NCBI GenBank assembly: GCA_003451785.1
Contig: DMJL01000026.1
Coordinates: forward strand, 1 to 36,651
Reading direction: 5' to 3'
From: Bacteroidales bacterium
GTDB lineage: Bacteria; Bacteroidota; Bacteroidia; Bacteroidales; UBA7960
DNA: 36,651 nucleotides
The translations under genes were made by a program, and so were the position numbers. Of the stretch, positions 5,699-32,198 are shown one piece after another; position 1 is the stretch's first letter, and each line of letters begins with the position of its first letter. A model generated the notes under the pieces. It was given only the letters and a program-made list of their open reading frames with translations. It was not told the origin of the DNA and searched no databases.

Positions 5699-5759
5699 CA
5701 TGGGATTTTGGCAAATACATCCCTTATTGGGTTCTTTATTTTCAAAAAAAACTTATAAT

Positions 5760-6344
5760 ATGGCTTGGATTGCAGGTTTTCTTCTGCGAATATTCGGATG
5801 GAAAGTTGAGACCGAAGATATTCATCTCGTAAAAAAGGCAGTATTGGTAATGGCACCCCATACATCCAACTGGGACTTTATTATTGGAAGACTTGCGCTT
5901 CTTTCGAGAAATGTGCCCGTCAAAACTCTGATGAAAAAGGAAATGTTTGTGTTTCCTATAAGTTACATCCTAAAGGCCTTGGGAACTATTCCCTTGGACA
6001 GGATAAAAAGCCCAAGCACCATAAAATCTGTTACTTCGCACTTTGCCAAATCCGACAATTTGCTTCTGATGATTACCCCCGAAGGTACTCGAAAGCTCAA
6101 TAAGCATTGGAAGAAAGGTTTCTACTTTATTGCTCAGGCATCCAATGCACCATTGTTATTAGGATTCTTAGACTACAAAAACAAAGTTGCGGGCATAGGA
6201 CCCACCATAGTCCCAACGGGCAATTACGAAGAAGACCTGATGAAAATAGAGCATTTTTATAAAGACAAAACCGCCCGTTATCCCGAAAAATTCAATCTTT
6301 CGCCCATTTATCGCCATGATACTAACAAGACGGAAGTGGGTTAA
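5760..6344 (+). CDS. 1-acyl-sn-glycerol-3-phosphate acyltransferase-like (PlsC family) protein
   Basis: HTSNWD (HX4D) acyltransferase motif and PEGTR motif III. I chose the ATG at 5760 (MAWIAGFLLRIFGWKV...) over the upstream TTG at 5685. Confidence 0.7.
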   Translation: MAWIAGFLLRIFGWKVETEDIHLVKKAVLVMAPHTSNWDFIIGRLALLSRNVPVKTLMKKEMFVFPISYILKALGTIPLDRIKSPSTIKSVTSHFAKSDNLLLMITPEGTRKLNKHWKKGFYFIAQASNAPLLLGFLDYKNKVAGIGPTIVPTGNYEEDLMKIEHFYKDKTARYPEKFNLSPIYRHDTNKTEVG

Positions 6345-9860: not shown

Positions 9861-9981
9861 CGTTTTGCGGCTTGGCGTAGTGGCAGATTTTTAGCACAAA
9901 AGTTCAATCGAAGAACAGCACTTGAACCTACCACAAAACTGTCATACGAAGCACTGCACCCGCCATTACGCCAAACCGCTG
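9861..9981 (-). repeat. Copy A of a ~121-nt structured dispersed repeat (inverted relative to copy B)
   Basis: The reverse complement of 9861-9981 aligns without gaps to 35932-36052 with 7 mismatches over 121 nt (hand alignment). It carries ~18-nt terminal inverted repeats. Confidence 0.85.
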
Positions 9982-11537
9982 TTACCTGCCGTTTTTCTTT
10001 TTGTCGTCCCATATTTTGTCTTTGGTTCACGAAAAATTTCAAGTTGTCCGTCAGCGTTTTTGTATGGTCGTTTCAAGTTATACTGTGCAACAATGTGTTC
10101 CGGTATCGGAAGTTTGTTGAGATTGCCCGGCTCAACTTTTATAGCTCCTGAACCGTAGCTTTTACCAACGAGTTTTAAATTCTCTAACGTGTCTGGATGA
10201 TTTAATGCTTTCCAAAGATTGTCAATATATTCTTGGTCGTTATAGATTGGGTAAACACAAAGAAAACCTGTCAATGGTAATACGCCTGCTTCGTTTTTTA
10301 TAAACCGTGTATTTCGTCTGCCGAGATAAGCAAACAACAATGGTGGAACTTTGCGTTGTTCCATTTTATACCAAGGCTTTCTTTGCTGAATTAGTGAACG
10401 TGAAGGAAGACCCATTTCTTCACCGACTTTCAAGTAGTCTTTTATTGACTTTGGGTAACTTTCTTGTCCGTTTATTGAGAGTAAAAAGGTCGGGCGGTTT
10501 TCTTTTTCCAATGCTTCAACATCTTTCAATGTCAAAATACTTTCTGTTGCATCTTTTGTTCTACCAACGGCACGTTTGAGAAATTCTTTGGGAATACCAA
10601 TGTCTTTAACTTGTTGTGCTGTCAAAAAGAAAAATTCATTTGAACCTGTCGCTATGCCTCTCATAACATTTGCAAAATCGTTCAAATGGAATTTAAACCC
10701 ATTATGATTTTGTTCAGGTCGAGATAAACCTGTTATGAGACCCTCCTTTAATTGACGAATAGTTATTTCTAAACTGTCAAACTCCTTTAATTTGAATTTA
10801 GAAGTTACAAGTTTCAATAAGTCGTCAGAGTATGCTTGATTAGCTTTAATCCATAGTAATGTTTTTTGCGGCTTACTTTTCATAATCATGAAAATAATTG
10901 CATTGGTATCAACATTTGGAAAGGGCGTAGCCCTTTCATCAAATGTAACTACACATTCAATGCAAAATTTTTCCGAAATCCATTTCCACAAGTTCTTGGC
11001 AAATTTCCCCTCACAAGTGTCTGCTGGCATTATGAAAGCAAGTTTTCCGTTTTGCTCTAAAAGATTTAATGCCTGAATTAGAAAATAAATGTGATACCCT
11101 GCTCTGCCGTCTATTGAATTTCCTGTTATTGATGTCGCAATTTTTTTGAGAAGTAATTTTGTTTCTTCATCAATTCTGTGATGCCTTATGTAAGGAGGAT
11201 TTGCAACGATTGCTTTGAATTTTCTATTAGGTGGGTTTTTAATAAAATCTCTATTCTCTACAAAGCATTTTTCTTTGTTGTAAATCTCATCTGATAAAAC
11301 TTCAGGGTCAATATCTGTCCCAAAAAAGGAAACATTTTGTTTGTTGATATTTAGTAATGCCTCATAAAATGCTCCTCTGCCTGTTGCAGGGTCAAAAATT
11401 AAGTCTGTGTTTTCTGACACGTAAGCAATCATTGCCTCCGCTACCCAACTCGGTGTCCAAAACTGACCTTTTTCACGAAGAATTTCTCTTTCGTTCCATT
11501 CGGTTGGTAGTTTCTGATGTGATTTTAGTTTCCCCAT
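9966..11537 (-). CDS. Type II N6-adenine DNA methyltransferase (gamma-class, Eco57I/TaqI-like) with C-terminal target-recognition region
   Basis: GQFWTP motif X, FDPATGRGAF motif I, and NPPY motif IV (VANPPYIRHH, nt 11190-11201). The ATG overlaps the upstream gene's stop in a TAATG. Confidence 0.85.
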   Translation of the reverse strand: MGKLKSHQKLPTEWNEREILREKGQFWTPSWVAEAMIAYVSENTDLIFDPATGRGAFYEALLNINKQNVSFFGTDIDPEVLSDEIYNKEKCFVENRDFIKNPPNRKFKAIVANPPYIRHHRIDEETKLLLKKIATSITGNSIDGRAGYHIYFLIQALNLLEQNGKLAFIMPADTCEGKFAKNLWKWISEKFCIECVVTFDERATPFPNVDTNAIIFMIMKSKPQKTLLWIKANQAYSDDLLKLVTSKFKLKEFDSLEITIRQLKEGLITGLSRPEQNHNGFKFHLNDFANVMRGIATGSNEFFFLTAQQVKDIGIPKEFLKRAVGRTKDATESILTLKDVEALEKENRPTFLLSINGQESYPKSIKDYLKVGEEMGLPSRSLIQQRKPWYKMEQRKVPPLLFAYLGRRNTRFIKNEAGVLPLTGFLCVYPIYNDQEYIDNLWKALNHPDTLENLKLVGKSYGSGAIKVEPGNLNKLPIPEHIVAQYNLKRPYKNADGQLEIFREPKTKYGTTKRKTAGNSGLA

Positions 11538-12541
11538 TAGAGTTGGTTTAATACGTTAATTGCTTGGTCAGCAATAGTTAAAGAACCTCCTTCAAATTTC
11601 ACATAGGGCAAAATGTGTCCGTTTTTATCCTCTATGAACGCAGGGATTAATTGAGGTCTTTCGCTTGCTATGCCAAGAGGATAGGCATAATGATAGTAAT
11701 ACTTATAAATGGCTTTTTTTGTTGTTGCACCACCTGGTGCTTGAAAAACTTGTTCAGTTGGGAGAATTAGTCCTTCTGAAACTAAGCGTTGTGCTTCATC
11801 AAAAGAAAGCCCATAAGCTCTGTCAAAGAAAACGTGCCAAACGTGAATTGGGATTTTGTTTTCATCTTGCCATTTATTAAGTGGAATACGGTCTTCCTCT
11901 TTTATAATTACAGTCGGTAGAACCGCAGTTTTTGCAAGTCCCATTTTACCGCCAAGTCGCTTTTGGGCTTTCATTTGGGTATTGTAGTCAGGCATTTTCT
12001 CTGCAACCCATAACGAGTTTTCGCATTCTACGGCAATGATTGCCTTTTGAACAAGGGGTTGTAATTTATCTTCCGTTATAAAAGGAAGTTCTTCTTCTCC
12101 ACCGATTTGATTTAAAAAGTCATCTACAAATTTTCTGTCAGAGTTTCTGAAAACTAATAGGTCGGGGCGTTTGATGTTGCCAAGTCCCGAAGCTTCTAAA
12201 CGTTCAAAGTATAATTCAAATGCTCTTACATCGTCTGTCGGTGCTGTGCCACTTGGACCGTATGCGATAGCATAAAATTTGCCTGTATTGTTAATTGCGT
12301 CTATTAAGCGTTTTTCACTCCATACACCTTGCGACCATCTCATTAAGAAGTCGCTTCCACGCAATTTTCTTGGATTGAGCCAAAAGTCTGCCCAAGTTAT
12401 TTCTGTAATACCCCTAAGTTCAAGTTCAATGTCCTCTGTTGAAACTGATAAAACTCTCTCAAATGGGTGCATTTCTGTTGTCATGTTTAAATTCCGAAAG
12501 TTGCTTTTTATTCTCTTTTTTTCGTTTATAAAAGTCTGCAT
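11537..12541 (-). CDS. Putative type II restriction endonuclease partner (PD-(D/E)XK-like)
   Basis: Translationally coupled to the methyltransferase through the TAATG overlap at 11537. Candidate nuclease motif RPD(129-130)...VECEN(174-178). The start is uncertain: GTG at 12550, ATG at 12541, or an internal ATG. The family (possibly AccI-like) is not verified. Confidence 0.55.
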   Translation of the reverse strand: MQTFINEKKRIKSNFRNLNMTTEMHPFERVLSVSTEDIELELRGITEITWADFWLNPRKLRGSDFLMRWSQGVWSEKRLIDAINNTGKFYAIAYGPSGTAPTDDVRAFELYFERLEASGLGNIKRPDLLVFRNSDRKFVDDFLNQIGGEEELPFITEDKLQPLVQKAIIAVECENSLWVAEKMPDYNTQMKAQKRLGGKMGLAKTAVLPTVIIKEEDRIPLNKWQDENKIPIHVWHVFFDRAYGLSFDEAQRLVSEGLILPTEQVFQAPGGATTKKAIYKYYYHYAYPLGIASERPQLIPAFIEDKNGHILPYVKFEGGSLTIADQAINVLNQL

Positions 12542-12607
12542 TTTATTCACAATCTTTCATAGGTGCACGGTCGTCCTAAAATGGCAGGTAACAATTTATA
12601 AAAAGTG

Positions 12608-18976: not shown

Positions 18977-21415
18977 TTAACCTTTCAGAAATCCATACTT
19001 GTAAATTCTCGGTTCAATCTTCATCTCAATTTTTCGCAACTTCTCCCGCAAGTTGATAATTAATTGCATGTAAATTTTATCATCGCTTTTGGTATTCATC
19101 TTGCCTTTATCGTTTCTCCCCTGAAAATGCATCCGGATATCATACAACGATGCATTTACATTGCAATTTGGCTGTTTGTGGTAGTATTTCCAAAGCCCAC
19201 ACCCTGCAGCAAAAACTTCGGTAGCTTCTGATGAGAAAACCAAGGGCGTTTCATAATGAACCTGTGGCTCAAGTAAAATGGAAAAAATATTCGGCGTGCT
19301 TTTATTGGGCTTTATCTTTCCTTTAATAAACCGGCTCATAAAGTTGCTTTGAAACCTTTCTCGCGCATTTACATCTTGTTCTGTGAATGGGATCCAGTGG
19401 TTGATGCCATATTCTGATTTTATACTGTTGCTAAATAGGGTATAAGCCAAGCAGTCGTTTTGAAATTCCAAATCGGTCTCCCATTTGCTATTAGGAAAAA
19501 GAAATTGGTCTCTATCGTTTAGCCAAGTAGCTTGAATGCTGTGACGAACTGTAAAATAAATTCCAACTTCAATTAAATTTTTATCAGTAATCCAGGTGCC
19601 CCTTGGGTGTGGCAATTGACTCTTATCGTTAATAATAAAGATCAAATTCGTGTTTTGAAAATCATTTCCTTTACAAGAAATAAAGCCAATATTTTTTTCA
19701 TTTTGGCGATTTCGAGTTGAAATTAACCAATCATTTATTGATTTTGAGTTTGAATAGGATGAGAAATTTTTAGTGAGAATCAGACTCCCATGCTCATTAT
19801 AAACATCTGAGCAACTTTCCTCAAACTTTTCCATTTTACCTGTATTCCAGATAAAAAATCCAATTGGAAACTTCCCTTTTACATTATCAAAGGTGTCGGC
19901 AGGGACGATGAACATTTTTTCCAGTTTGGCTTGAAAAAATTTTCGAAATTTTTCAAAATTAGGTGCTTGCAGAATTTTCAACTTTGAAAATTCTGCAAGC
20001 ACTACGCCTGGAATTTCGCTATAAATTCTTGCAAAAAACTGGGCAAAAAGCTCTCTTCCAGCAATTCCAATTTTAGGTTGGTAGTTTCTGTAAATTTTTG
20101 TGGTAACAGCAACATCGGTTTTATTTACCTTTTTTCCAGAAACGGTTCCAGTACTCGCAGCTTCAGCATACGGTGGATTAATATACACCACCAACTTCTT
20201 CCGCTTTTCGGGGTCATAAATTATGTCCTTTAGTGTTTTGGGCAATTTGTTGAAATCGTCGTTCAAAAAATCAAATTGGAAAACATGGTCTTCAAGCAAG
20301 TTTGCACCATTTTTTATGCGATCGCGCATTATTTCAACATCTTGTTGGTCTAATGTTGAAGCCCAAATATGGTATTTGTTGGTAAGCCCGTTTAGCAAGT
20401 TGCCAGTGCCCGCAGCACAATCCCAAATAAAATACTCGTCCTGCCAGTCGTCCCCCAAAACATCTGCCAAATACTTTTGGGAAAGTTCTACCCAGATTTG
20501 CGGCGTAAAAAAGCTGCCCTTTCTTTCTCTAACATCTTGTGGCACAAGCAAATCCCTTCGCTCTACAATATAATCCCAATACCCTTCCTTGGGTGGTCGT
20601 TCATACTTGTTCCAAAACTGTGTATGAGCTAATTGCTTGTCGTTGAACTCGGTTCTTTTACTACTAAACATACCGGCCTCGTCCACCTTGCGATCCAGTT
20701 CGTAATGGTCGCTCCTAAGCAACACAAAGAGCTTCTCCTTAAGTGTAGTGTTTTCATGAGAAAGCATATCGGCAAGATAAAAGTCGCCGTCAATTATTCC
20801 GCTCTTCTTTGCAATTTCCCATTTAACAGCAATAGTTGGCTTCACAGTTTGATGCCATTTGTTGTAAATGACAATGAAATTATTCTTGTCTATTCGGTTC
20901 TTTGTAAGACCGAATTTGCCAACAACAAAATTGCTCTTTATGAATCTCCGCAGTTCTTTGTCGTCTTTTTCGTACTCGAAGAGCAGCGTTTTTTGGTCTA
21001 AAATTGCTTTTACTTTTTCATGGACACTCCTGAACTCCTTAGTTTCATAATCAGAAGGTGCAACATTCCAATTGAAATCATTCTGATAAAAAACATCATG
21101 AATGTCGCTATAAGGGATGAACGCAATTTTTTCTCCATCGAATGCCCCGAGAAAACGGGGAGGCAAATACTTATCAAATGTGCGGGCTTTTCCAATGGTA
21201 AGTATAAGCTGAACAAGGGAGTTGTAAATGTTTGACGCACCTTTCTTTGCTTCTGCCCATAGGAGAGATTCTTGGTCGGCTAACTCCTTAGTGCTTTGGT
21301 GTATAGCCACGCAAAAATCAACATTACCCATAATCTTAGAACAATCGAAAATCCAAAAATAGTCGTGAGCTACTTTGTTTTTCAATTCTTCTTCTCTAAT
21401 GTTGGCGTATTTCAT
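18977..21415 (-). CDS. Single-polypeptide N6-adenine DNA methyltransferase with large N- and C-terminal extensions; type IIG-like restriction-modification candidate
   Basis: GSFFTP motif X (aa 300-305), WDCAAGTGNLL motif I (aa 331-341), and NPPY motif IV (aa 413-416, nt 20168-20179). The N-terminal VDF(33)...LLWAEAKKG(E55-x-K57) resembles the D...ExK nuclease motif of MmeI-type enzymes. The ~380-aa C-terminal region could be a TRD. Strongly A/T-rich (16 G+C in the 60 nt at 19681-19740). Confidence 0.7.
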   Translation of the reverse strand: MKYANIREEELKNKVAHDYFWIFDCSKIMGNVDFCVAIHQSTKELADQESLLWAEAKKGASNIYNSLVQLILTIGKARTFDKYLPPRFLGAFDGEKIAFIPYSDIHDVFYQNDFNWNVAPSDYETKEFRSVHEKVKAILDQKTLLFEYEKDDKELRRFIKSNFVVGKFGLTKNRIDKNNFIVIYNKWHQTVKPTIAVKWEIAKKSGIIDGDFYLADMLSHENTTLKEKLFVLLRSDHYELDRKVDEAGMFSSKRTEFNDKQLAHTQFWNKYERPPKEGYWDYIVERRDLLVPQDVRERKGSFFTPQIWVELSQKYLADVLGDDWQDEYFIWDCAAGTGNLLNGLTNKYHIWASTLDQQDVEIMRDRIKNGANLLEDHVFQFDFLNDDFNKLPKTLKDIIYDPEKRKKLVVYINPPYAEAASTGTVSGKKVNKTDVAVTTKIYRNYQPKIGIAGRELFAQFFARIYSEIPGVVLAEFSKLKILQAPNFEKFRKFFQAKLEKMFIVPADTFDNVKGKFPIGFFIWNTGKMEKFEESCSDVYNEHGSLILTKNFSSYSNSKSINDWLISTRNRQNEKNIGFISCKGNDFQNTNLIFIINDKSQLPHPRGTWITDKNLIEVGIYFTVRHSIQATWLNDRDQFLFPNSKWETDLEFQNDCLAYTLFSNSIKSEYGINHWIPFTEQDVNARERFQSNFMSRFIKGKIKPNKSTPNIFSILLEPQVHYETPLVFSSEATEVFAAGCGLWKYYHKQPNCNVNASLYDIRMHFQGRNDKGKMNTKSDDKIYMQLIINLREKLRKIEMKIEPRIYKYGFLKG

Positions 21416-21534: not shown

Positions 21535-24105
21535 TTACTCAAGCCAAATTTGCTCTACCTCCAGCGATACCCTTTGGCTTGCGCCCTCCCGGATGGAAAA
21601 CTGGATGGTTTGCAGTTTGTTCCAATCAAAGGGGGCATCCTCCTTTGCTTCGTGAAAAAATGACATAAACACCGGATAGGGCCTTGGTATGATTGCGTAT
21701 TTTCCTTGCGAAAAGGCACTGAGTGGAATGCGGTATTGCTTTTTGCCCGGCTCAATGCTTATCTGTGCAGTGAATGCCACTCCATTGTGGTCTATCAATC
21801 CCACTTCAACAGGTTGAGCAGTTTGGGTTAGGGTGCGGGCGTTTAGCACAAGGTATCGCTTTGCGGCAAACTCGTTTTGGCGACCTTTCAGTTCGTCGGC
21901 AAAGTAGTATTTGAAAGTGTAATCGCCAATGGAATCGCCTGCATGAAATGCGTTTCTGAGTTGGTCAAGGTCAATTCTTAGAACTGTATTGCCTTCGGGT
22001 GTAGGTAACGGACGCACATCGCGATACCACCTGCGCATGGTTTCGGACCAGCTGGTGGCGGCATCCCACAACGCCAAATTAGCATTTTGCGGAACAACTC
22101 TCAGGCTAAATGCATCGGTATGTGCAAAATCCCACTGACCGGGTCTGCCTTGGTGTGCGCCGGGGAAGGTTATATTTTGACCGCCTTCGTTCACCGTAAC
22201 CTGGTAAGAAAACAATCCCTTCTCAACAACATCGGCAGGAATAGTAACCGACCATCTAACTCCCCTCTCGAACACAGCATCAAAGTTTCTCCATTGCCTT
22301 GCCGACATTATTAGGACTTCTACTTCTTCGGGTTTTGTGAGCGAGAACACATCAAACTTCAAAGTTAGCAGGCCGCCTTCGCTAACCTCCTCCGGCGAAT
22401 GGTTTGTCAGGAATATTCCGTTGAGATTGGTAGCAGGTGCCACAAACTCATTGAGACGGATATTCTGAAACTGCATGGTGGGAGTAATATGCTTAGTAGC
22501 TCCTTGGCGTCTTATCAAGTAAGTACCGGGCTTTATGGAGAAAGCGTTGCTGGTGACTTGTGGAACGAATGGATTGCCTTCGTTCAGGGGTTGAATGGTG
22601 AATCCGCTGCCCAAATTGGGTATTTTCAGGGTCATTTTCCTTTTATTGTGTACAACTGCAGCTTTTTGGAGTCCGGGACTGGCTCTCGAATAGGGGTCTC
22701 TGATGAGAAAAGCATCGGGCATTACCTCGAGTCGCCAAATGCCGTCTGCAACCTTGTCGAGAAAATAGGCACCGAGACCATCGTACTCCACCAAAGGTGA
22801 AGAGCCAAAACCGGCAATTTCGGTAAGCAGGGCAGGATTGGCAGGAGATGATGTAGTGTTGTTGGTATAAATGAACCTTTCGTTGGTAACCATTTCGGCA
22901 AGGTTTTCCTGGTGGCTCAATCGGAAATTGCCAAACCTAAGGTTGTCGGGATATATACCCAAATTGGCATACATGGGCACCTGCCTAAAGATTTCACCGG
23001 CAATTTTCAGACTCAAAGCGCGTTGGGGGCTGTAAGCCAAATTCATAAAATGCGTTCCGTAGTTGGTGTTGTATGGGGCATTGAACATGGCATCGTAAGC
23101 AAAATAAGTTCCCACCTGCATTCCCGCTTGTCTGAAGGTACGCGCCATTGCCGGAATGAGATAGCTGCCGTGGGTGTCGGATGCGTCGAATTCATAAACA
23201 AGTTTTGCCCTTTGCCTAAACACCGGATTGTTGGCAAACGGAATATGATAATAATCTACCTGTGGCAGAAAATTGCCCTGCCGTGCATGGTTCGCTACCA
23301 GCCCAGTGGGATACCACTGAAAGGTGCCACCCTGCATTTCTGTGGTTAAGAAAGCCTCCAACTGAAAAATATTATGACTCCAATTATAGAAAATGGGCTT
23401 TTGCAATCCTGTGCGACGCATGGAGCGCGACATCCGGTTGATAAAGTCGGTTACTTCGGCTATAGTGCCAAAATGATGTGGCTCATTGGAAACCTCAAAG
23501 GCAATGATGCTTGGCTCGTCTTTGTAGGCCACGCCAGTATATTGGTTCACATGGTTCAAGAATTGGTACAAAAAGTTTTCCTGCGCGCGGATGCAATCTT
23601 CGATTACAAGACAACCCGCTTTGCTCCATCGCTGCGAAAAACCGGGGGTGGCTTCATCAGGCTCGGGCCAGCCGTTGCCCCAAAATGCTATGGGCGTTAT
23701 CACAAAGCGCATACCTCGCTTTTTCATCTCGTAGATAGCAAAATCCAATAACCGCAGATGCTCATTGTTAATCAGATTTCCCAAAGTGTCGGATATTTCG
23801 GTATCCCACACATGCACACGATATAGGTCGAGACCCAGCCGTGCAAAATGGTAAACATCTTGCCGAATAGCATCCTCATGCGAAACACCAAGACGATTGG
23901 CCATTCTAAATTCATGCGCAAAGGGCAGTGTGTAATTTACTCCAAAACCAAAGACTTCTTGGTTGTTTTGGCGAAACCGCATCACGCCATTGCGGTCAAC
24001 CACCACAAGTCCATCGTTTCTTCTGGGAGTGGCGTGAAGCCCCACACTAAGCAATAGCAAGAGGGCTGTTAAATATGTGAGCAAAGATTTTGACTGAAAT
24101 TTCAT
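21535..24105 (-). CDS. Secreted clan GH-A (GH5-like) glycoside hydrolase with C-terminal accessory domains
   Basis: Signal peptide (LLLLLSVGLHA). TIM-barrel-type segment with FEVSNEPHH (NEP acid/base motif). 856 aa. The exact GH family was not determined. Confidence 0.6.
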   Translation of the reverse strand: MKFQSKSLLTYLTALLLLLSVGLHATPRRNDGLVVVDRNGVMRFRQNNQEVFGFGVNYTLPFAHEFRMANRLGVSHEDAIRQDVYHFARLGLDLYRVHVWDTEISDTLGNLINNEHLRLLDFAIYEMKKRGMRFVITPIAFWGNGWPEPDEATPGFSQRWSKAGCLVIEDCIRAQENFLYQFLNHVNQYTGVAYKDEPSIIAFEVSNEPHHFGTIAEVTDFINRMSRSMRRTGLQKPIFYNWSHNIFQLEAFLTTEMQGGTFQWYPTGLVANHARQGNFLPQVDYYHIPFANNPVFRQRAKLVYEFDASDTHGSYLIPAMARTFRQAGMQVGTYFAYDAMFNAPYNTNYGTHFMNLAYSPQRALSLKIAGEIFRQVPMYANLGIYPDNLRFGNFRLSHQENLAEMVTNERFIYTNNTTSSPANPALLTEIAGFGSSPLVEYDGLGAYFLDKVADGIWRLEVMPDAFLIRDPYSRASPGLQKAAVVHNKRKMTLKIPNLGSGFTIQPLNEGNPFVPQVTSNAFSIKPGTYLIRRQGATKHITPTMQFQNIRLNEFVAPATNLNGIFLTNHSPEEVSEGGLLTLKFDVFSLTKPEEVEVLIMSARQWRNFDAVFERGVRWSVTIPADVVEKGLFSYQVTVNEGGQNITFPGAHQGRPGQWDFAHTDAFSLRVVPQNANLALWDAATSWSETMRRWYRDVRPLPTPEGNTVLRIDLDQLRNAFHAGDSIGDYTFKYYFADELKGRQNEFAAKRYLVLNARTLTQTAQPVEVGLIDHNGVAFTAQISIEPGKKQYRIPLSAFSQGKYAIIPRPYPVFMSFFHEAKEDAPFDWNKLQTIQFSIREGASQRVSLEVEQIWLE

Positions 24106-24546
24106 AAATGAAAGAGATTATTTGTGAAATTATAAAAACCGACAAACACAACCACTTGTATGTCAGCCATGTGAAATGAAAAACAACAAATGATTTGAAG
24201 CAAAAATAAAATCCTAAATATCGGATTTTTTACCATGCACGCAACGAACTGCAAGTTGAGAAAAACACAAAATTAAATGAGCTAACAGCAATGAAACTCA
24301 CAAAGGTGCAAAAACTACAGGCATTGCACCGCAAAGCAACAAGCAGTTTGACAAAATTTTTAACCGAAAGTTATAAGGATTGGATACATTTGTGTGGAAA
24401 ATACATGACTGTTTGAGCAACCGCAATAAATTCGTTGGTCAGGTCAAAACACAATAAAATCAAGCAATTATCAACCATCAACTTAATCTGAAGCATTTGT
24501 AAAAAAACCGGTAGCATACAAAACAAAAAAAGAGTTTTTGTTGCAA

Positions 24547-25497
24547 ATGCCTTTAAAAAAATTTCTTGTGAATTGTATGGAAAAGAAAGTCAGCAACCTA
24601 TCGGTTTTTCGCAAAAATTTGGTTTACAACACACTGGGGGAGTTAGACTCCAACCAGCCTGAGTTTTTGGTATCTGAAAGCCTTTATGAGTTACCCCATG
24701 GAAAGCTCGTAAAAGAAACCCACTGGACCGAAAACGGGCAAGTGGAACAGCAAACGGTTTACAGCTATACCCCACAAGGATTTTTGTTGCGAGAGGAGCT
24801 GGTGGATAGCGACGGCTCAACATTAGAATGCCGAAGTTTTGAGCCTGATAGCAACAACCTTATCCAAATCGAAAGATTGCATTATGCAGATGGATCTGCC
24901 GACAGAATATTGTATGTGAGGGATAGCAACCAAAAACTTGTTCGCAAGGAGTTTTATGCCGATGAAAACGACCTTGAAGTAATTGAAGAGTTTGCGTATG
25001 ATGGTGAAAACCTTTTAAGACAAACAAAAAGGGACAATAACGACGACCTTATAGCAGAATCGCATTACACATATAACGATATGGGGTTGATATCAGAATT
25101 GACTGTTAACGACTTGGAAGAAGACATTAATTATCAAAAGCATTATGCATACGATGAGAATGGTTTTTTGCTACAAGTTACCACCTTCAATGAAGAAGGC
25201 GACCCTGTGGAACGCATAACCCACGAAAATAATGAAGCCGGCAAGCCGGTAAAAATTACAGACGAAAATAAGAGACAGAAAAACACTACAACCCTTGAAT
25301 ATAATGAATTTGGGGAAGTGATATTTCAAGCAGAGACCGACCGCCACGGTCAATTGGTAAAACAATTAGAGAAATCGTTTGACGACAACAACCTATTGAA
25401 AGAAACCCAAGTATTGGTGCGAGATTTTCAAAGGGGATTTTCGCGCAGCTATGTATTAAGGCATCAATATGTCTTTTTTGATAACCAAACGGATTAA
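24547..25497 (+). CDS. YD/RHS-like repeat protein, small, no obvious signal peptide
   Basis: Recurrent Y-x-Y-D/N-x-x-G-like units (YSYTPQGFL, FAYDGENLL, YTYNDMGLI, YAYDENGFL, EYNEFGEV). The start is uncertain: TTG at 24538, ATG at 24547, or ATG at 24577. Confidence 0.4.
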   Translation: MPLKKFLVNCMEKKVSNLSVFRKNLVYNTLGELDSNQPEFLVSESLYELPHGKLVKETHWTENGQVEQQTVYSYTPQGFLLREELVDSDGSTLECRSFEPDSNNLIQIERLHYADGSADRILYVRDSNQKLVRKEFYADENDLEVIEEFAYDGENLLRQTKRDNNDDLIAESHYTYNDMGLISELTVNDLEEDINYQKHYAYDENGFLLQVTTFNEEGDPVERITHENNEAGKPVKITDENKRQKNTTTLEYNEFGEVIFQAETDRHGQLVKQLEKSFDDNNLLKETQVLVRDFQRGFSRSYVLRHQYVFFDNQTD

Positions 25498-25499
25498 TC

Positions 25500-26090
25500 A
25501 TGGAAACGGCATTTTTTGATTCATTCTGGTGGACTTGGGTGGTTCTGCCATTACTCATTTTCTGTTCTCGCATTTTAGATCAGAGTATTGGAACCCTGCG
25601 TCTAATTTTTGTATCAAAGGGTTATAAAAACATTGGACCTTTTCTGGGGTTTTTTGAGGTAATCATTTGGTTGTTGGCCGTTACACAGGTGCTGCAACAT
25701 CTCACCAACCCTATGTCGTACATAGCTTACGGCGGGGGTTTTGCCATGGGAAATTATATAGGGATGCGCATTGAAGAAAGGATAAGCATTGGCACTGTCC
25801 TTATCCGAATTATACCCAAAGATGATGCAAACGATATGATCGGCAGATTGCGCCAAGAGGGTTTTGGAGTAACAGCTACACCGGCGGAAGGTGCTATGGG
25901 CCCGGTGAAAATAATCTTTACCATCATTAAGCGAAAAAGCATTCCCACAGCCATAAACATCATCAATCAATACAATCCGCAGGCATTTTATACCATCGAA
26001 GAGATAAAATCCGTGAAGGATGGATACTTTGGAGTGCAGCAAAAAAGGGAAGTTTTCAATTGGCGGTTGTTTAGCAAGAAAACAAAGTAA
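25500..26090 (+). CDS. UPF0316 / DUF2179-domain membrane protein
   Basis: 196 aa. The N-terminal TM segments, with ILDQSIGTLRLIFVSKG, and the C-terminal soluble domain are typical of the UPF0316 family. It starts 2 nt after the preceding stop. Confidence 0.6.
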   Translation: METAFFDSFWWTWVVLPLLIFCSRILDQSIGTLRLIFVSKGYKNIGPFLGFFEVIIWLLAVTQVLQHLTNPMSYIAYGGGFAMGNYIGMRIEERISIGTVLIRIIPKDDANDMIGRLRQEGFGVTATPAEGAMGPVKIIFTIIKRKSIPTAINIINQYNPQAFYTIEEIKSVKDGYFGVQQKREVFNWRLFSKKTK

Positions 26091-26155: not shown

Positions 26156-27331
26156 CTAATTCCATCTTCCTGGAATAGCTCTATTACAAAATCTGCACCG
26201 ACCGTTTCGTATTTGATTCGAAATTAGCGTAATTCCCGCCCTGTGCATAATCCTTTCTCCGCAACCCGGGCAGAAGGTGCTATCGTAGCGATGACCCGGC
26301 ACATTTCCAATGGTAACGAAGTTTATGCCTGCATCTCTTGCTATGCGGTGGGCTGCTTCTAAGGTTCTTATGGGTGTGGCGGGAAGGTTTGTTAGCCTAT
26401 ATGCTGGCATAAAACGATTGAAGTGCAGAGGCACATCCGGTCCAAGGTTTTCGAGAATCCACAGGCTCATAGCTCTTATAGTGGCGGGATTGTCGTTTAG
26501 GGTGGGAATCACTAAGTTAATGATTTCGAGCCATACTCCTTCTTCTTGAATAATTTTCAGGGTTTCCAGCACGGGCTGCAGCGATCCTCCGCTTATCTGG
26601 CGATAAAACTTATCGTCGAATGCTTTCAAATCAACCCGCACAGCATCTATATGCCTAAGCAATGCCCTAAGTGGCTCAGGATTGATGAAACCGTTGGTTA
26701 CAAGGGTTGTTTTTATGCCTTCCTTTTGCGCCAGTTTTGCAATATCGTAAACATACTCATAAAAAACCGTAGGCTCGGTATAGGTGAACGATAGAGAATT
26801 GAATCCAGCTCTTCTCACGCCATCAACAATTTGCCTTGGAGAGCGTACAAGATTTCTTACATCTTCTACACTGCTCTGGGAAATAGACCAATTCTGACAA
26901 TTCTGGCAATGAAAGTTGCATCCTACAGTTGCAACCGTCTGGCGCCAATGCCCCGGAAAGAAATGATGAAATGGAGCCTTTTCAATTGGCCCGGAGCTTA
27001 CGGTAACCGGTCTGCCATATACAAGGGTATAAAGCACCCCGCGTCGGTTTTCTCGCACCCGGCACAATCCCCGACTTCCATCGGGAATCACGCAATAATG
27101 AGGGCACAATTCGCACATTACCCTGTTGTTGGTCAGCTCACGCCAGTATTTTGCGGGGCGTGGGCCAGCCTTCATCCCTGCTTCCGATCTGTTTGCTGCA
27201 ACACTCATTGTATTCAAAGGCTCATCAGGTGACAACCATCGGGATGGCAAATCTTTCCAATATGGATAATACACAAATGCAGCCGATACAATTATGGATG
27301 TGAGAATCAGAAAAAAAATGGTCTTTCTCAT
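26156..27331 (-). CDS. AmmeMemoRadiSam-type (AmrS-like) radical SAM enzyme, paralog 1, with N-terminal signal/anchor
   Basis: N-terminal Cys cluster CELCPHYC..GLC, PIEKAPF, radical SAM CNFHCQNC (Cx3Cx2C), and a C-terminal CPGC...CRFC ribbon. The hydrophobic N-terminus is MRKTIFFLILTSIIVSAAFV. Confidence 0.8.
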   Translation of the reverse strand: MRKTIFFLILTSIIVSAAFVYYPYWKDLPSRWLSPDEPLNTMSVAANRSEAGMKAGPRPAKYWRELTNNRVMCELCPHYCVIPDGSRGLCRVRENRRGVLYTLVYGRPVTVSSGPIEKAPFHHFFPGHWRQTVATVGCNFHCQNCQNWSISQSSVEDVRNLVRSPRQIVDGVRRAGFNSLSFTYTEPTVFYEYVYDIAKLAQKEGIKTTLVTNGFINPEPLRALLRHIDAVRVDLKAFDDKFYRQISGGSLQPVLETLKIIQEEGVWLEIINLVIPTLNDNPATIRAMSLWILENLGPDVPLHFNRFMPAYRLTNLPATPIRTLEAAHRIARDAGINFVTIGNVPGHRYDSTFCPGCGERIMHRAGITLISNQIRNGRCRFCNRAIPGRWN

Positions 27332-27364
27332 TTGAATGGTTTCCTAATTTTTTTAATGACATAT

Positions 27365-28534
27365 CTATTCCCAAATTCCGGGCACAGGTCTGCCCGAAAA
27401 AGGCGACCTTCCATTTTCAATTCTATTGTAAACCACATTGAAATGCACACGATGAATCAACCGTTTGCCGGTATGAGGACAAAAAGTGGAATTGTAGCGA
27501 TGTCCGGGTACATTTCCAATGGTAACGAAGTTGAGTCCTGCTTCTCTGGCAATGCGGTGTGCCGCTTCGAGAGTTCTAATCGGAGTAGCGGGCAGGTGTG
27601 TCAATCTGTACGATGGATGAAACCGTGTGAAGGCAAGGGGCACATTGGGACCGAGATTTTCTGCAATCCACTCGCTCATGGCCCTGATCTGCCGCAGGCA
27701 ATCATTCACCGTTGGTATAATCAGATTGGTTATTTCGAGCCACGCCCCTTCCTCCTTGATTATTTGCAGAGATTGCAACACAGTGTAGAGATTTCCACCA
27801 AAGTAGGTTTGATAGGCTTGGTTGCAAAAACCTTTTAAATCGACCACAGCTTGGTCTATGCGGTTGAGTAATGCTCGGAGTGGCATCTCTGCAATAGCAC
27901 CATTGGTGTGAAACTGCATTCGCAACCCCTGCTGGCGAGCCAAAACAGCTACATCGTAAAGAAACTCGTAGAAAATTGTCGGCTCGTTGATTGACCCTGT
28001 AATGGTTCGTGCACCTTGCTGCAATGCATAATCCACTACCTGAGAAGCTGAAAGCCTTCTTGCCCGTACCTCCTCCGGCCTTCGCTGGGTGATATGCCAG
28101 TTGTGGCACTGCATACAGCGAAAATTACAACCGGCTGTGGCCAAAGCAAGCACTCTGGTACCGGGCAAGGCGTGTTTCATGCCGTCTTTCTCAATAGGCG
28201 CAATGGTAGTAGAAGCCAACTGCCCGTAAACAAGGGAATACAACCGACCATCGCGGTTTTCCCTTACCCGGCAAATTCCGCGTCTTCTGGGGGCGATTAT
28301 GCAATAGTGCGTGCAAAGAGTACACTTTACCCTGTTATTATCAAGTGATTCCCAAAAGCGGGCTTCAACAGCCCCTCCGGAAACAAAGGTTGGCGGAGGC
28401 AAACTGGAATGCAGTGCAGGAACCAAGTTTTCTTTTGCCCGAAAAAAGGAAGGTATGTAGGCAGCAGCAATTGCTGCCAATAGGATGATTGCTACAAGTA
28501 TTTTAAAATACCTTTTTTCCATAGCTTTTGGCAT
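27365..28534 (-). CDS. AmmeMemoRadiSam-type radical SAM enzyme, paralog 2, with N-terminal signal/anchor and a degenerate C-terminal Cys ribbon
   Basis: CTLCTHYC..GIC, PIEKDG, and CNFRCMQC. The C-terminus reads CPHTG...SPFSG, so three of the four ribbon cysteines are missing. N-terminus KRYFKILVAIILLAAIAAAY. It shares an identical 23-nt stretch with paralog 1 (27510-27532 = 26301-26323). Confidence 0.8.
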   Translation of the reverse strand: MPKAMEKRYFKILVAIILLAAIAAAYIPSFFRAKENLVPALHSSLPPPTFVSGGAVEARFWESLDNNRVKCTLCTHYCIIAPRRRGICRVRENRDGRLYSLVYGQLASTTIAPIEKDGMKHALPGTRVLALATAGCNFRCMQCHNWHITQRRPEEVRARRLSASQVVDYALQQGARTITGSINEPTIFYEFLYDVAVLARQQGLRMQFHTNGAIAEMPLRALLNRIDQAVVDLKGFCNQAYQTYFGGNLYTVLQSLQIIKEEGAWLEITNLIIPTVNDCLRQIRAMSEWIAENLGPNVPLAFTRFHPSYRLTHLPATPIRTLEAAHRIAREAGLNFVTIGNVPGHRYNSTFCPHTGKRLIHRVHFNVVYNRIENGRSPFSGRPVPGIWE

Positions 28535-28635
28535 AAAGTCGTGAAAAAAACCGCAGTTTGACGCATGACCGCCCCAACCCTATTACCTCCTTCCCTTGCC
28601 CACAAAAGAAAAAGGGCAACCTAAGATGCAACTGC

Positions 28636-28667
28636 TAAATGTACAAAATTTTTCAGAAAATCACAAA
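28636..28667 (-). promoter_or_regulatory. Candidate internal Bacteroidota-type promoter (-33 TTTG, 20-nt spacer, -7 TAcaTTTA) ahead of radical SAM paralogs 2 and 1
   Basis: Minus strand: TTTG (28667-28664), a 20-nt spacer, then TACATTTA (28643-28636). It lies in the 181-nt gap between the membrane-protein stop and the paralog 2 start. Confidence 0.3.
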
Positions 28668-28715
28668 GTATTTCCGAACACTAAAAGAAGTGTAAAACAG
28701 CCTTTTGCAGGATTA

Positions 28716-31037
28716 TTAACCCAGAACCTTGAATATAGATTTGCGTTTGGAATAAGCGAACACAACTAGCAATCCTATACTGGCTAACTTGAGTAATGCC
28801 ACTACTATGCTGGTCTGCACCAGACCCATAACCGGCAGCAAGGCTACGCCTCCCAGCAGACCACCAACCCAGCCGCCTAATAAATCGGCACCAAACAGCT
28901 TGCCTGCCGTGTGGCTCACTCCATCGCGAGTGCTCAGAATTATATGACTTGCAAGCGGAAACTGCGCACCTAGCAGGAAACCGGCCAGTGCCGACAACAA
29001 AAAAAACATCCCATTCACAAGGTAGGAATTGGCCAACTCGAAAATGCCCGGAACCACTACCATAAAAACCAATGGCATTAGCACAGCAAACAAAAGCATC
29101 ATCAATTCCAAACTCAAGAAAAGCCGTATGCCGTTTTTAATAGAGTTTAACTTAGCCGTGATTACCATACCTCCAGCTCCAATTCCCATCATGAATGCTG
29201 TAACTAAAAGCCCGATATGGTGAAAAACATATCCGTGAATGATCTGAAAGGTATAAATTATGGAAAGCTCGAACAGCATCCCTGCAAAACCCGATGTTGC
29301 AATGGCAAATGTAATTGCGTTGTTAGATGCTTTGGAACGATTTTTTAGCCCAAAGAACAGCAAAACCATCATAACAACAAAAACGGGAATGGCCAAATGC
29401 TTTAAGCGAAGATTCTCTACCCAGGCGAACACTTTGGCAGCACCAGGCGAAAACAATGCATTCCAGTGTGCAATGCTGTAGAACATAGCCCGTGGTCTAA
29501 AGTCGTGGTTTGGCTGGTTGCTTGCTCCCTGCAAAGACTCAAAAAACCAATCGGTCCAGCGAGTATCCAACTTAAAGTCAATATAAAAAGGGTTAATTAA
29601 TCCCGTTTGCAAATTTCTTTCATAAAATCTATGGCTCAATGCCTCCAAAGAAATTAATGAATCGAGATTTGAATCGGAGGCCAGAAACAGGTTGATGTCG
29701 CCTGGAATGACACGCACATTTTGGAAAACAGCATTAAGACTTGCAAGAACCGACGCGTTGATATTTTTTAGTTCCCGACTCAGATAAGTCAACGACCCCG
29801 GCAGCGACAAGGCTAAGATTCCGCCTTGGCGTAGCTGTTGCTCGGCTTGAGCAAAAAACTCTTTGGTAAAAAGTCTGTTGGTTTGAAGATTTACCGGACT
29901 TGTTGCACCTACCAGAATCACATCGTAATACTCTGATGATTTTTTCACATATAGGCGCCCGTCTAAATATTCCACATTCACACGGGGGTCGTTAAGTTCA
30001 GCTTCCGATATTGGAGTGGGAAATTTTTTAACCACATCCAAAAGCATAGGGTCGAGTTCGGTATAAACCACCTTACTTACCGGATGTTTCAATATCTCGT
30101 GGATCATGCCACCGGCACCCCCACTCAGTATCAATACTGTATTTGGATTGGGATGCGACAACAAGCTTAGATGCACAAATTCCTCAAGGAAAAGCAAGTC
30201 GGGATCGGGAGAAGTAATGATGGGCTTACCGTCGGCAAAAAAAGTATTTTGCCCATTGCTGGTTGTTACGGTAATGTTTCCATGAAAGGAATTGCGGTAA
30301 TAAACCACATTTTGACCCGGCCACTGCTGCTGAACCGTGTGCTGATGAATTGCTTTTGAGCCACTACCTGCCAAAAAAAATATTGATGCTAAAATGCCCA
30401 ATGCAGAAAAACCTGCCAGTAGTTTTGTAGAAAATGACCTTTTTAGATTGTCTAACATTAAAACCAGCCCCACCAGCAGATTCAAAAACATTAGCAATAG
30501 GGCTATTTGAAATGCGTTGAAAAACGGGATAAAAAGGTAGGTAAACACCACTGCGCCTACAATGGTGCCAATGGTTTCAAAAATATAGGTATTGCCTATG
30601 GGTGACGCCTTGTGTGTGGCGACAAGGCTTTTGGCGTGCAACCTACATGAAACCGAAAACAATGCGCCGTGCATGAAGCTCAAGGGTGCAAGCAACAACA
30701 GGGATGAAATAAAGATTGGTGCAAGACCGATTCCTTCGCCGGGCAAAACACCCATGATTTCTTTTAGCAGGCGAGTGGCATAAATGATGAAGGGAAAGGA
30801 TAATGAAAAAAGCAGGTTGATGCCTACAAAAACCCCCACGCTATTGTTGCTGCGGTCTATCCATTTGCCGGCAACAAATGCACCCAATGCTTCTAAAATA
30901 AGCCAGTTGGCAAGAATAATAGCAATTACCAATTCGGTGCCGGCAAATACGATGAGAAATTCTCTTAACAAAAGAATTTGAACTACAATGCCGCTAAATC
31001 CGACTGCCAGAATGGCTAACAAAACCCTATTCTTCAT
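28716..31037 (-). CDS. Polytopic membrane protein with central spermidine-synthase-like (SpeE-fold) domain, fused transporter/SpeE type
   Basis: There are about 7 hydrophobic segments at the N-terminus (aa 1-225) and about 6 at the C-terminus (aa ~540-760). The central domain has VLILSGGAGGMIHEILKH, YTELDPMLLDVVKKF, and YDVILVGATSP aligned to the SpeE GGGDG / EID..V...KK / DSSDP motifs. Confidence 0.75.
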   Translation of the reverse strand: MKNRVLLAILAVGFSGIVVQILLLREFLIVFAGTELVIAIILANWLILEALGAFVAGKWIDRSNNSVGVFVGINLLFSLSFPFIIYATRLLKEIMGVLPGEGIGLAPIFISSLLLLAPLSFMHGALFSVSCRLHAKSLVATHKASPIGNTYIFETIGTIVGAVVFTYLFIPFFNAFQIALLLMFLNLLVGLVLMLDNLKRSFSTKLLAGFSALGILASIFFLAGSGSKAIHQHTVQQQWPGQNVVYYRNSFHGNITVTTSNGQNTFFADGKPIITSPDPDLLFLEEFVHLSLLSHPNPNTVLILSGGAGGMIHEILKHPVSKVVYTELDPMLLDVVKKFPTPISEAELNDPRVNVEYLDGRLYVKKSSEYYDVILVGATSPVNLQTNRLFTKEFFAQAEQQLRQGGILALSLPGSLTYLSRELKNINASVLASLNAVFQNVRVIPGDINLFLASDSNLDSLISLEALSHRFYERNLQTGLINPFYIDFKLDTRWTDWFFESLQGASNQPNHDFRPRAMFYSIAHWNALFSPGAAKVFAWVENLRLKHLAIPVFVVMMVLLFFGLKNRSKASNNAITFAIATSGFAGMLFELSIIYTFQIIHGYVFHHIGLLVTAFMMGIGAGGMVITAKLNSIKNGIRLFLSLELMMLLFAVLMPLVFMVVVPGIFELANSYLVNGMFFLLSALAGFLLGAQFPLASHIILSTRDGVSHTAGKLFGADLLGGWVGGLLGGVALLPVMGLVQTSIVVALLKLASIGLLVVFAYSKRKSIFKVLG

Positions 31038-31046
31038 GCAATTAAA

Positions 31047-32198
31047 TTAACTCCATATTCCCGGTATCGCAGTCCTGCAGCTCGGACAACGCCCATTGAC
31101 CAAATTGTTTTCCAAGACCCGGAAATGTGTACGATGGATAACCCTATGGTTGCATGAAGGGCAAAAAGTAGAATTATATCTGTGTCCGGGCACATTTCCA
31201 ATAGTAACAAAATCAAGACCTGCGTCTTTGGCAATGCGGTGTGCCCGCTCCAAAAGGTTGATGGGAGTCTTTGGGATTTGCGTTAACCTATAAGTTGGGG
31301 TGAATCGAGAAAAATGCAGGGGTGTACTTTTGCCAAGATTGTCTCTTATCCATATACACATTCGCCTTACATCTTCAACATTATCGTTGAGTGTTGGGAT
31401 TTTTAGGTTTACAATTTCGAGCCATCTGCCGGCTGCTTTAATCTCCCTAAGCGTTTGCAACACAGGAGCTAAACGAGCAGTGAGAATAGTGCGATAAAAC
31501 TCCTCGGTAAAGCCTTTCAAATCAATAGTAACAGCATCCGTATATTTCAACAACTCCCTAGCCGGCTCGGGATTCATTGCGCCATTGGAGTGCCATAAGA
31601 TTTTCAAACCCCGTTGCTTGGCTATCACCGCAGTATCGTAGGCATACTCATAAAAACTTGTAGGCTCGTTGTAGGTAAATGAAATGGTGCGGAGTCTTCT
31701 ACTTTGTGCCAAGTCAACAAGTGCGGCAGGCGGAAGGTCATATACCCTGTTCATATCTTCGATACCCCTTTGCGACAAGTGCCAATTGTGGCAAAATCTG
31801 CAACGAAAGTTGCACCCAGCGGTACCCACACAAAGAATTTCCGAACCCGGAAACATGTGCAATGCAGGCTCTTTTTCTATGGGTTCTACATGCACCGCCG
31901 AGGGTCTTCCATGTACCAATAGAAACAACCTCCCTCCTTGATTTTCTTTGTTAAAGCAACGCCCTCTTGCACCATCATTTATGCGGCAGTTGAGAAAACA
32001 CAACTCGCAATGCACCTGGTTGTTGGGCAACCTTCTATAAAACATGGCTTCCCTGAGTGGGGTTCGCGGTCGCCTTGCTTCTGCTTCTTTACTCATAAAC
32101 ATGGATAGGGACGATATGGCTCCAATCCCTGCAACATACTTGCAACCGACACCCAAAAAATGGCGCCTTGTGGTGTTTTTCAAAAATGGTGAATCCAT
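31047..32198 (-). CDS. AmmeMemoRadiSam-type radical SAM enzyme, paralog 3, with twin-arginine (Tat) signal motif
   Basis: TRRHFLGVG followed by a hydrophobic stretch and AEA (aa 10-41). CELCFLNC..GRC, PIEKEP, CNFRCRFC, and a C-terminal CPSC...CPSC ribbon. It ends 9 nt before the membrane-protein ATG. Confidence 0.8.
   Translation of the reverse strand: MDSPFLKNTTRRHFLGVGCKYVAGIGAISSLSMFMSKEAEARRPRTPLREAMFYRRLPNNQVHCELCFLNCRINDGARGRCFNKENQGGRLFLLVHGRPSAVHVEPIEKEPALHMFPGSEILCVGTAGCNFRCRFCHNWHLSQRGIEDMNRVYDLPPAALVDLAQSRRLRTISFTYNEPTSFYEYAYDTAVIAKQRGLKILWHSNGAMNPEPARELLKYTDAVTIDLKGFTEEFYRTILTARLAPVLQTLREIKAAGRWLEIVNLKIPTLNDNVEDVRRMCIWIRDNLGKSTPLHFSRFTPTYRLTQIPKTPINLLERAHRIAKDAGLDFVTIGNVPGHRYNSTFCPSCNHRVIHRTHFRVLENNLVNGRCPSCRTAIPGIWS

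Follow-up and report, generated by a model that had tools for sequence, protein, structure and literature searches.

The 36,651-nucleotide stretch of Bacteroidales DNA analysed here at its full length (contig DMJL01000026.1 of GenBank assembly GCA_003451785.1; hereafter the window) contains, according to its list of open reading frames (ORFs), four consecutive minus-strand genes at positions 26156–32198, which encode three paralogous radical S-adenosylmethionine (SAM) enzymes and one membrane protein, hereafter the partner. The cluster runs from paralogue 3 (31047–32198; 383 amino acids) through the partner (28716–31037; 773 amino acids) and paralogue 2 (27365–28534; 389 amino acids) to paralogue 1 (26156–27331; 391 amino acids), with successive gaps of 9, 181 and 33 nucleotides, and the coding strand of the 181-nucleotide gap (28535–28715) holds no convincing ORF for a small precursor peptide. 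We consider the N-terminal extensions of the three enzymes, which have the features of export or anchor signals, and what the partner may contribute to enzymes that would work outside the cytoplasm.

The three paralogues share 48–49% pairwise identity and resemble the AmmeMemoRadiSam enzyme (AmrS; NCBIfam TIGR04337), with scores of 298–353 bits (331.8, 298.4 and 353.0 bits for paralogues 3, 2 and 1, respectively) that exceed the curated cut-off of 220 bits, and with a common arrangement of cysteines comprising an N-terminal CX2CX3C...C, a CX3CX2C motif and a C-terminal CX2C...CX2C. Pfam Radical_SAM (PF04055) is also matched by all three (E-values of 1e-22, 9e-13 and 2e-25), and the CX3CX2C cluster motif that characterises the radical SAM superfamily is present in the forms CNFRCRFC, CNFRCMQC and CNFHCQNC. 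Because the TIGR04337 model begins to match at residue 52, 58 or 60 of the three proteins (residues 52–382 in paralogue 3), each has an N-terminal extension of 50–60 amino acids that lies outside the family definition. The CX3CX2C cysteines of paralogue 3 (C129, C133 and C136; 31791–31814) are invariant in an alignment of 71 sequences (A2), as are the N-terminal C64, C67, C71 and C81 and the C-terminal C346, C349, C371 and C374. Paralogue 2 departs from this pattern in its C-terminal region (27365–27480), where three of the four cysteines are missing (CPHTG...GRSPFSG versus CPxC...GRCxxC in paralogues 1 and 3), and it also has TGSINEPT in place of SFTYNEPT; a non-redox or a regulatory role is possible for this copy.

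The AlphaFold2 (AF2) model of paralogue 3 (predicted local distance difference test score (pLDDT) of 87) has a detached helix at residues 11–36, a disordered segment at residues 37–44 and a compact core beyond. While a sequence search of the PDB returned no match at E ≤ 0.001, the closest PDB fold to the model is the pyruvate formate-lyase activating enzyme PFL-AE (3cb8; target-normalised TM-score of 0.79, E-value of 8e-14), with which it shares a partial TIM-barrel radical SAM core. Identity to PFL-AE is 17%, paralogue 3 differs from it in the additional N- and C-terminal cysteine motifs and the export signal, and the window cluster contains no glycyl radical enzyme.

N-terminal signals of the paralogues and their homologues

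Paralogue 3 begins MDSPFLKNTTRRHFLGVGCKYVAGIGAISSLSMFMSKEAEA, of which residues 1–41 (32076–32198) make up a predicted twin-arginine translocation (Tat) signal peptide. An earlier note on this DNA had proposed that TRRHFLG matches the Tat consensus and is followed by an h-region and an AxA site, and the sequence reads as described: the Tat motif T-R-R-H-F-L-G occupies residues 10–16 (32151–32171), and the h-region (approximately 32094–32159) is only moderately hydrophobic, is broken by one lysine and leads into SKEAEA, with A-E-A at 32076–32084, and then RRPR. Retention of the twin arginine in orthologues, a check that the note had asked for, is borne out among the 120 best matches to paralogue 3 (57–98% identical, most approximately 60%, with source names that include Omnitrophota, Deltaproteobacteria, WOR-3 and Clostridiales), 68 of which carry [STLP]RRxF[LIF] at the same position. 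Most homologues lacking the RR motif have RK variants or Sec-like, anchor or lipobox N-termini; within the set of 120 there are 9 RK variants, approximately 26 strongly hydrophobic N-termini lacking RR and 8 short calls. The RR-type N-termini of all collected sequences yield the logo S-R-R-[E/D]-F-L-K-K-G, and their cores are less hydrophobic than those of non-RR N-termini (maximum 13-residue Kyte–Doolittle hydropathy of 1.81 ± 0.36, n = 125, versus 2.79 ± 0.40, n = 117; Mann–Whitney p = 2e-34). Tat signal cores are less hydrophobic than Sec cores, and the difference between the two sets is thus the known distinction between Tat and Sec signals. Lipobox signals are found in approximately 14 members of the clade that contains the window paralogues (for example, P0359 with LLSGC, P0332 with AAIGC and P0331 with RR followed by LLSC), and a Tat or transmembrane (TM) N-terminus is present on nearly every radical SAM protein in the 46 loci collected, Bathyarchaeota included.

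Paralogue 1 begins MRKTIFFLILTSIIVSAAFV (residues 1–25; 27257–27331) and paralogue 2 begins MPKAMEKRYFKILVAIILLAAIAAAY (residues 1–30; 28445–28534). Both have the positively charged n-region and hydrophobic stretch that had been claimed for them, in the form of MRK or MPKAMEKRYFK followed by a very hydrophobic helix (Kyte–Doolittle 2.1–2.5 over 19 residues; 2.53 for the anchor of paralogue 2), which constitutes a putative N-terminal anchor at residues 4–22 of paralogue 1, ahead of a Pro-rich linker, and at residues 12–30 of paralogue 2. These anchors are conserved, with orthologues of paralogue 1 retaining MRK or MKK, the TM helix, the Pro-rich linker and GPRPARYWQ, and that of paralogue 2 being retained in the nearest Bacteroidales metagenome-assembled genomes (MAGs; loci L001 and L002) and in P0374. 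Neither paralogue has a twin arginine, the corresponding residues being RK or KR and, in orthologues, often KK. The KRYFK of paralogue 2 was considered as a degenerate Tat motif and ruled out, because its Bacteroidales orthologues lack it. In many other anchors the twin arginine is kept (TRRTFLL in L008, SRRKFLV in L034 and SRRKILL in L041), and these clade members, which join RRxFL to a strongly hydrophobic helix of uncleaved appearance, look like the Rieske-type Tat signal anchors that form a known class of Tat signal; paralogues 1 and 2 differ from that class in having no twin arginine.

Signals of this kind could be artefacts of annotation, with the true start codons downstream of the hydrophobic segments, as the eight short calls among the 120 homologues might suggest. 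The short calls are gene-caller truncations (P0101 is called from an internal methionine, and its upstream frame in L046 reads SRRDFLKK), tblastn matches extend from residue 1 at 80–81% identity in L001 and L002, and the extension is conserved across phyla, both in the homologues and in the 46 loci. This conservation at the protein level refutes a start-codon artefact, to which we assign next to no probability; downstream starts, named by the earlier note as the weak point of its claim, are excluded. Sequence comparison thus confirms the predicted export or anchor signals of the three paralogues as genuine and widely conserved.

The mixture of signal types within one cluster could also be accounted for if only paralogue 3, with its Tat-type signal, were exported while paralogues 1 and 2 faced the cytoplasm, the module then working on both faces of a partner that spans the membrane; such an arrangement would avoid Sec export of iron–sulphur (Fe–S) proteins. 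Clade members resembling paralogues 1 and 2, however, interchange anchors, Tat signals and lipoboxes (P0264, 61% identical to paralogue 1, bears MNRRRFLQ, and P0359 bears LLSGC), two copies of Tat type occur together in some loci (L003, L021, L028 and L044) and two of anchor type in others (L017, L022 and L031), and the anchor-type proteins P0394 and P0392 bear an FMN_bind domain. We regard a module divided between the two faces as improbable. The idea that paralogues 1 and 2 hitch-hike on paralogue 3 and its Tat signal was also dropped as a general answer, several loci having anchor-type copies alone.

The partner and its spermidine-synthase-like domain

In approximately 35 of the 46 loci, from approximately 15 phyla including archaea, a radical SAM gene directly adjoins a homologue of the partner gene, usually immediately upstream and on the same strand, and a search started from the partner recovers this pairing as well. 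Paired loci are found in Bacteroidales, Anaerolineales and other Chloroflexota, Deltaproteobacteria and Desulfobulbaceae, Zixibacteria, Spirochaetota, Eiseniibacteriota, Nitrospirae, Dictyoglomota, Brocadiia, Planctomycetia, Ignavibacteria, Omnitrophota, WOR-3, Bacillota and Bathyarchaeota. Genes for AMMECR1 and Memo are absent from the 36.6-kb window and from the neighbourhoods examined, and since the flanking genes also vary from locus to locus, the module appears to be self-contained. In L001 an additional ORF lies between the partner and the paralogue 2 orthologue (4859–6022, with a matching gap in L002); it contains SITK and, as read by eye, resembles a beta-lactamase-type serine hydrolase.

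The partner has 14 predicted TM helices interrupted by one soluble domain. TM1–TM7 (30366–31025; residues 5–224) were placed by hydropathy and AF2 helices, TM8–TM14 (28755–29402; residues 546–761) by hydropathy, the AF2 model and an internal repeat detected by hhalign, and the domain between them (29403–30365; residues 225–545) has a predicted SpeE fold. The AF2 model is of high quality (pLDDT of 89 and predicted TM-score of 0.87), and its secondary structure has one continuous helix at residues 707–772, in which the last two helices of the hydropathy analysis are merged. TM1–TM6 align with TM9–TM14 (hhalign probability of 93.9%, E-value of 1.6e-7), some homologues have Pfam MFS_1 matches below threshold, and these features suggest a layout of 6 + 2 + 6 helices like that of the major facilitator superfamily (MFS), in which the soluble domain would be carried by the outward loop between the two central helices. 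Loops rich and loops poor in lysine and arginine follow each other in turn along the sequence: these residues number 23.7 in the loops assigned to the inside versus 3.9 in the short loops assigned to the outside, a bias in the same direction in 70 of 70 homologues, which places the N- and C-termini of the partner inside and the soluble domain outside.

The soluble domain is matched by Pfam Spermine_synth (PF01564; 99.6 bits) and, in that part of the partner only, by the NCBIfam model NF037959 'fused MFS/spermidine synthase' (50.1 bits, above its cut-off of 40), with PDB sequence matches to 1iy9 and 1uir and Foldseek TM-scores to SpeE structures of 0.72–0.78 (normalised to the target). SpeE structures dominate the fold search of the whole partner, from which the fold of the TM domain is not readable. 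In SpeE, the aspartate of GGGDGG selects decarboxylated SAM by excluding the SAM carboxylate and the catalytic aspartate deprotonates the amine. Both are lost in all 70 partner homologues, the former (position 308) being A, V or T and the latter Gly377, so that the partner lacks two of the three acidic residues by which SpeE is defined; position 380 is variable. The acidic ribose- and adenine-binding residues are kept, with E327, D329 and D359-G360 invariant together with D372 and N387-R388. Loss of both aspartates makes it unlikely that the partner is an aminopropyltransferase, and with the ribose- and adenine-binding residues in place the domain, catalytically degenerate as judged from its sequence, is likely to bind SAM or an adenosyl product without making polyamines. 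Unlike SpeE, moreover, the partner has this domain embedded among 14 helices, between TM7 and TM8, with a predicted location outside. The motif VRVIPGD in the partner was tried as a glycyl-radical motif and dropped, as it does not fit the consensus.

The window enzymes might instead be ordinary members of the AmmeMemoRadiSam system that use AMMECR1 and Memo encoded elsewhere, placed by coincidence beside a true membrane-bound spermidine synthase. All three paralogues do lie above the TIGR04337 cut-off, their homologues and those of the partner are named 'AmmeMemoRadiSam system radical SAM enzyme' and 'spermidine synthase', and one exported-looking fusion of Memo, AMMECR1 and a radical SAM domain exists (P0414). 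A coincidental pairing is at odds, however, with its recurrence over approximately 15 phyla, with the absence of AMMECR1 and Memo described above, with the loss of the catalytic and the decarboxylated-SAM-selecting aspartate in 70 of 70 partner homologues, and with the position of the window paralogues in a signal-bearing clade, apart from the fusions to AMMECR1 and Memo. We consider this explanation very unlikely; the window enzymes differ from AmrS in being paired with an MFS-like/SpeE-like protein rather than with AMMECR1 (AmrA) and Memo (AmrB), as checked locally.

Fusions, charges and the side of the membrane

In a neighbour-joining tree computed from 147 representative cores (average-linkage clustering resolved no clades), all three window paralogues fall within one clade of 58 representatives, in which 49 of the 55 classifiable members carry signals and to which P0361, P0364, P0368, P0372, P0392 and P0394 also belong. 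Fusions of radical SAM, AMMECR1 and Memo domains that fall into pure clades (P0418, P0428, P0442 and P0463) are in clades that lack signals; the 50–60-residue export or anchor extension and a separate signal-bearing clade distinguish the window enzymes from AmrS.

Among the closest cluster representatives, several relatives carry domains that bear on location. FMN_bind domains receive their flavin outside the cytoplasm, and PF12801 proteins of NapH-like type that bear one are described as electron conduits across the membrane to extracytosolic reductases (PMC8238504). In P0366 and P0368, six TM helices separate the outside FMN_bind domain from the radical SAM domain, which places both on the same side, and in P0392 and P0394 an anchor is followed by FMN_bind (VDAVSGAT/VDTVSGAT) and the radical SAM domain with no TM helix between the two. 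The FMN_bind domains of P0365, P0366, P0368, P0392 and P0394 all have the canonical D-x-x-[S/T]-G-A-T (VDAITGAT/IDAITGAT, IDGITGAT and VDAVSGAT/VDTVSGAT). A DsbD_2 module is joined to the radical SAM domain in P0368, P0372 and P0375, the first of which also has a NapH-like part (PF12801), and domains of secreted type follow the signal in P0361 (CBM_11) and P0364 (beta-propeller). ApbE recognises the motif D-x-x-[S/T]-G-A-[S/T] (PMC12052999), and a Pfam scan and sequence comparison found neither this tag nor an FMN_bind domain in the three window paralogues.

The linker in front of the radical SAM domain of many anchor-type homologues contains an [ST]-x-A-[ST]-P motif (loci L006, L007 and L014), a pattern found in 12 of 117 non-RR versus 0 of 125 RR-type sequences and absent from the window paralogues. 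Some of these linkers resemble the ApbE tag, and in some the tag is perfect (DAVTGATPK in P0066 and P0073, DAVTIATPK in P0079, DGVTLATPK in P0109 and DAETGASPK in P0113). As a lead only, a perfect D-x-x-T-G-A-T tag in the linker might give the enzyme a covalent flavin as reductant; no ApbE gene was found near homologues with DAVTGAT-like linkers in the loci examined.

Anchors could also tether the enzymes in a cytoplasm-facing position, with the hydrophobic N-termini, the RR-bearing one included, docking on the cytoplasmic side of the membrane beside the partner, and in that case the problems of SAM, reductant and Fe–S assembly vanish. The charge patterns are divided on this point. Among 99 non-RR anchors the net flank charge is +1.78 on the N-terminal versus −0.33 on the C-terminal side, and the N-terminal side is the more positive in 84, as expected for an N-in orientation. 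Raw lysine plus arginine counts are equal on both flanks (2.09 versus 2.14), which weakens the flank-charge evidence, and the charges of P0373 (838 amino acids; TM helix, radical SAM, Memo and AMMECR1) suggest an N-out, C-in, cytoplasm-facing anchor, so that a hydrophobic N-terminus alone is no proof of export; both points weigh against an extracytoplasmic location. Against cytoplasmic tethers stand the S-RR-x-F-L-K-K-G logo with its core of low hydrophobicity, which is the Tat signature and for which we know of no tethering role, the existence of lipobox variants, the fusion of FMN_bind on the side of the radical SAM domain, and the soluble domain of the partner, predicted outside in 70 of 70 homologues. 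We judge cytoplasmic tethers unlikely. The earlier note had placed the catalytic domains outside the cytoplasm and had offered membrane tethers as its alternative; the predicted outside location is supported by the signal types, the FMN_bind fusions, the net charges and the partner topology, and the alternative is disfavoured. As the enzyme signals and the charge bias of the partner are independent predictions that point to the same compartment, and as every computational test that was run favours an outside location over downstream starts or cytoplasmic tethers, the extracytoplasmic placement can be regarded as computationally supported.

Several other relatives have unusual architectures. 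P0414 (835 amino acids) has a Sec-like signal followed by Memo, AMMECR1 and radical SAM domains in one polypeptide, and together with P0373 it raises the possibility that, in some organisms, the three canonical AmmeMemoRadiSam components are themselves exported or bound to the membrane. In the signal-less relatives P0400 (710 amino acids) and P0407 (803 amino acids), the radical SAM domain is interrupted by an intein that carries a LAGLIDADG homing endonuclease.

A candidate extracytoplasmic radical SAM module

Taken with its homologues, the cluster at 26156–32198 on the minus strand probably encodes a self-contained module for radical SAM chemistry outside the cytoplasm, an interpretation that we favour with moderate confidence. 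Paralogue 3 would be folded and loaded with its Fe–S clusters in the cytoplasm and then exported through the Tat pathway, its signal being either cleaved after AEA or retained as a signal anchor, while N-terminal signal anchors would keep paralogues 1 and 2 on the external side of the cytoplasmic membrane. The partner would either move SAM across the membrane and present it, thus providing the co-substrate of the enzymes outside the cell, or take up the products 5'-deoxyadenosine and methionine. Electrons would be supplied by a donor in the membrane or the periplasm, and in relatives this donor is built in as fused FMN_bind, NapH-like or DsbD-like modules. Given the fold shared with activases of glycyl radical enzymes, the chemistry is most likely SAM-dependent hydrogen abstraction, and the target may be an envelope protein, a peptide or a small molecule. 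From the conserved signals, the recurrent gene pairing, the predicted topology and lost catalytic residues of the partner and the fusions of relatives, we infer export itself, supply of SAM by the partner and the reaction.

To our knowledge, radical SAM enzymes have been treated as strictly cytoplasmic, in view of their need for SAM, a low-potential reductant and Fe–S assembly. The fused electron conduits indicate that the reductant problem is solved in relatives, and the MFS-like/SpeE-like partner is a candidate answer to the problem of extracytoplasmic SAM. Several observations, in addition to the flank charges and P0373, speak against the proposed module. Sec exports unfolded protein, and for such a protein with 11 invariant cysteines we know of no route by which Fe–S clusters could then be inserted outside the cell, yet paralogues 1 and 2 and approximately 100 homologues have no RR motif; tat, apbE, FMN_bind, NapH and DsbD genes are all absent from the 36.6-kb window, and with them a recognisable electron source of its own; approximately 7 loci with sufficient flanking sequence have no partner; and Pfam MFS_1 matches the partner homologues at 18–25 bits, below the gathering threshold of 33.4, which leaves the MFS assignment doubtful. 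The homologues come from taxa that we take to be mostly anaerobes, and the sequencing runs that match the window are DNA metagenomes only, from aquatic, sediment, groundwater and wastewater sources, both of which fit an oxygen-sensitive enzyme outside the cell.

The closest parallels in organisation are the NosZ–NosR and RdhA–PceC systems (PMC8238504), which likewise have a Tat signal on an Fe–S enzyme and whose electron-supplying parts recall the relatives fused to FMN_bind plus a PF12801 NapH-like domain or to DsbD. The present case differs in that the client is a radical SAM enzyme, which would need SAM outside the cell, and in that the window cluster has no conduit; radical SAM enzymes are nowhere mentioned in PMC8238504. 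A full-text search, with subscription-only literature outside it, found no paper on an exported radical SAM enzyme or on the pair of radical SAM enzyme and partner, the two apparent matches proving unrelated. A broader proposal, which we put forward tentatively and hold to be possible rather than probable, is that of a widespread periplasmic or pseudo-periplasmic radical SAM system of anaerobic bacteria and archaea with a SAM economy of its own, in which the partner would export SAM and hand it over to the enzymes and electrons would arrive through flavinylated or NapH/DsbD-type conduits.

The remainder of the window contains several genes of separate interest. Downstream of the module, 24538–26090 (plus strand) encodes a small RHS/YD-repeat protein (319 amino acids) and a DUF5698/DUF2179 membrane protein (196 amino acids), neither of which is conserved beside the module in other loci. 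At 9966–12550 (minus strand), the genes for an Eco57I/N6_Mtase-type DNA methylase (523 amino acids) and an AccI-like restriction endonuclease (337 amino acids) share one base and make up a type II restriction–modification pair. Products of 812 amino acids (18977–21415, minus strand) and 856 amino acids (21535–24105, minus strand; signal-peptide-like N-terminus) have no Pfam match and are encoded beside genes for a family 2 glycoside hydrolase (GH2), a galactokinase and an aldose epimerase; they may be uncharacterised glycan-degrading proteins. No Pfam family was assigned to the products of 8090–9445 (plus strand; 451 amino acids) and 5410–5865 (minus strand; 151 amino acids).

The breadth of a clade that combines Tat, lipoprotein and anchor signals suggests an overlooked class of envelope chemistry. 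If the extracytoplasmic location were confirmed, three matters would become open to test, namely the presence and working of SAM outside the membrane, the delivery of low-potential electrons and the installation of Fe–S clusters after Sec export; the Sec-type and lipoprotein signals on many members would, if the proposal is true, mean that such clusters can be inserted outside the cytoplasm. Thousands of annotations as 'spermidine synthase' and 'pyruvate formate lyase activating enzyme' would then be wrong, and the orphan TIGR04337 family would gain a handle on its function. An extracytoplasmic supply of SAM, if confirmed, would represent a new kind of system.

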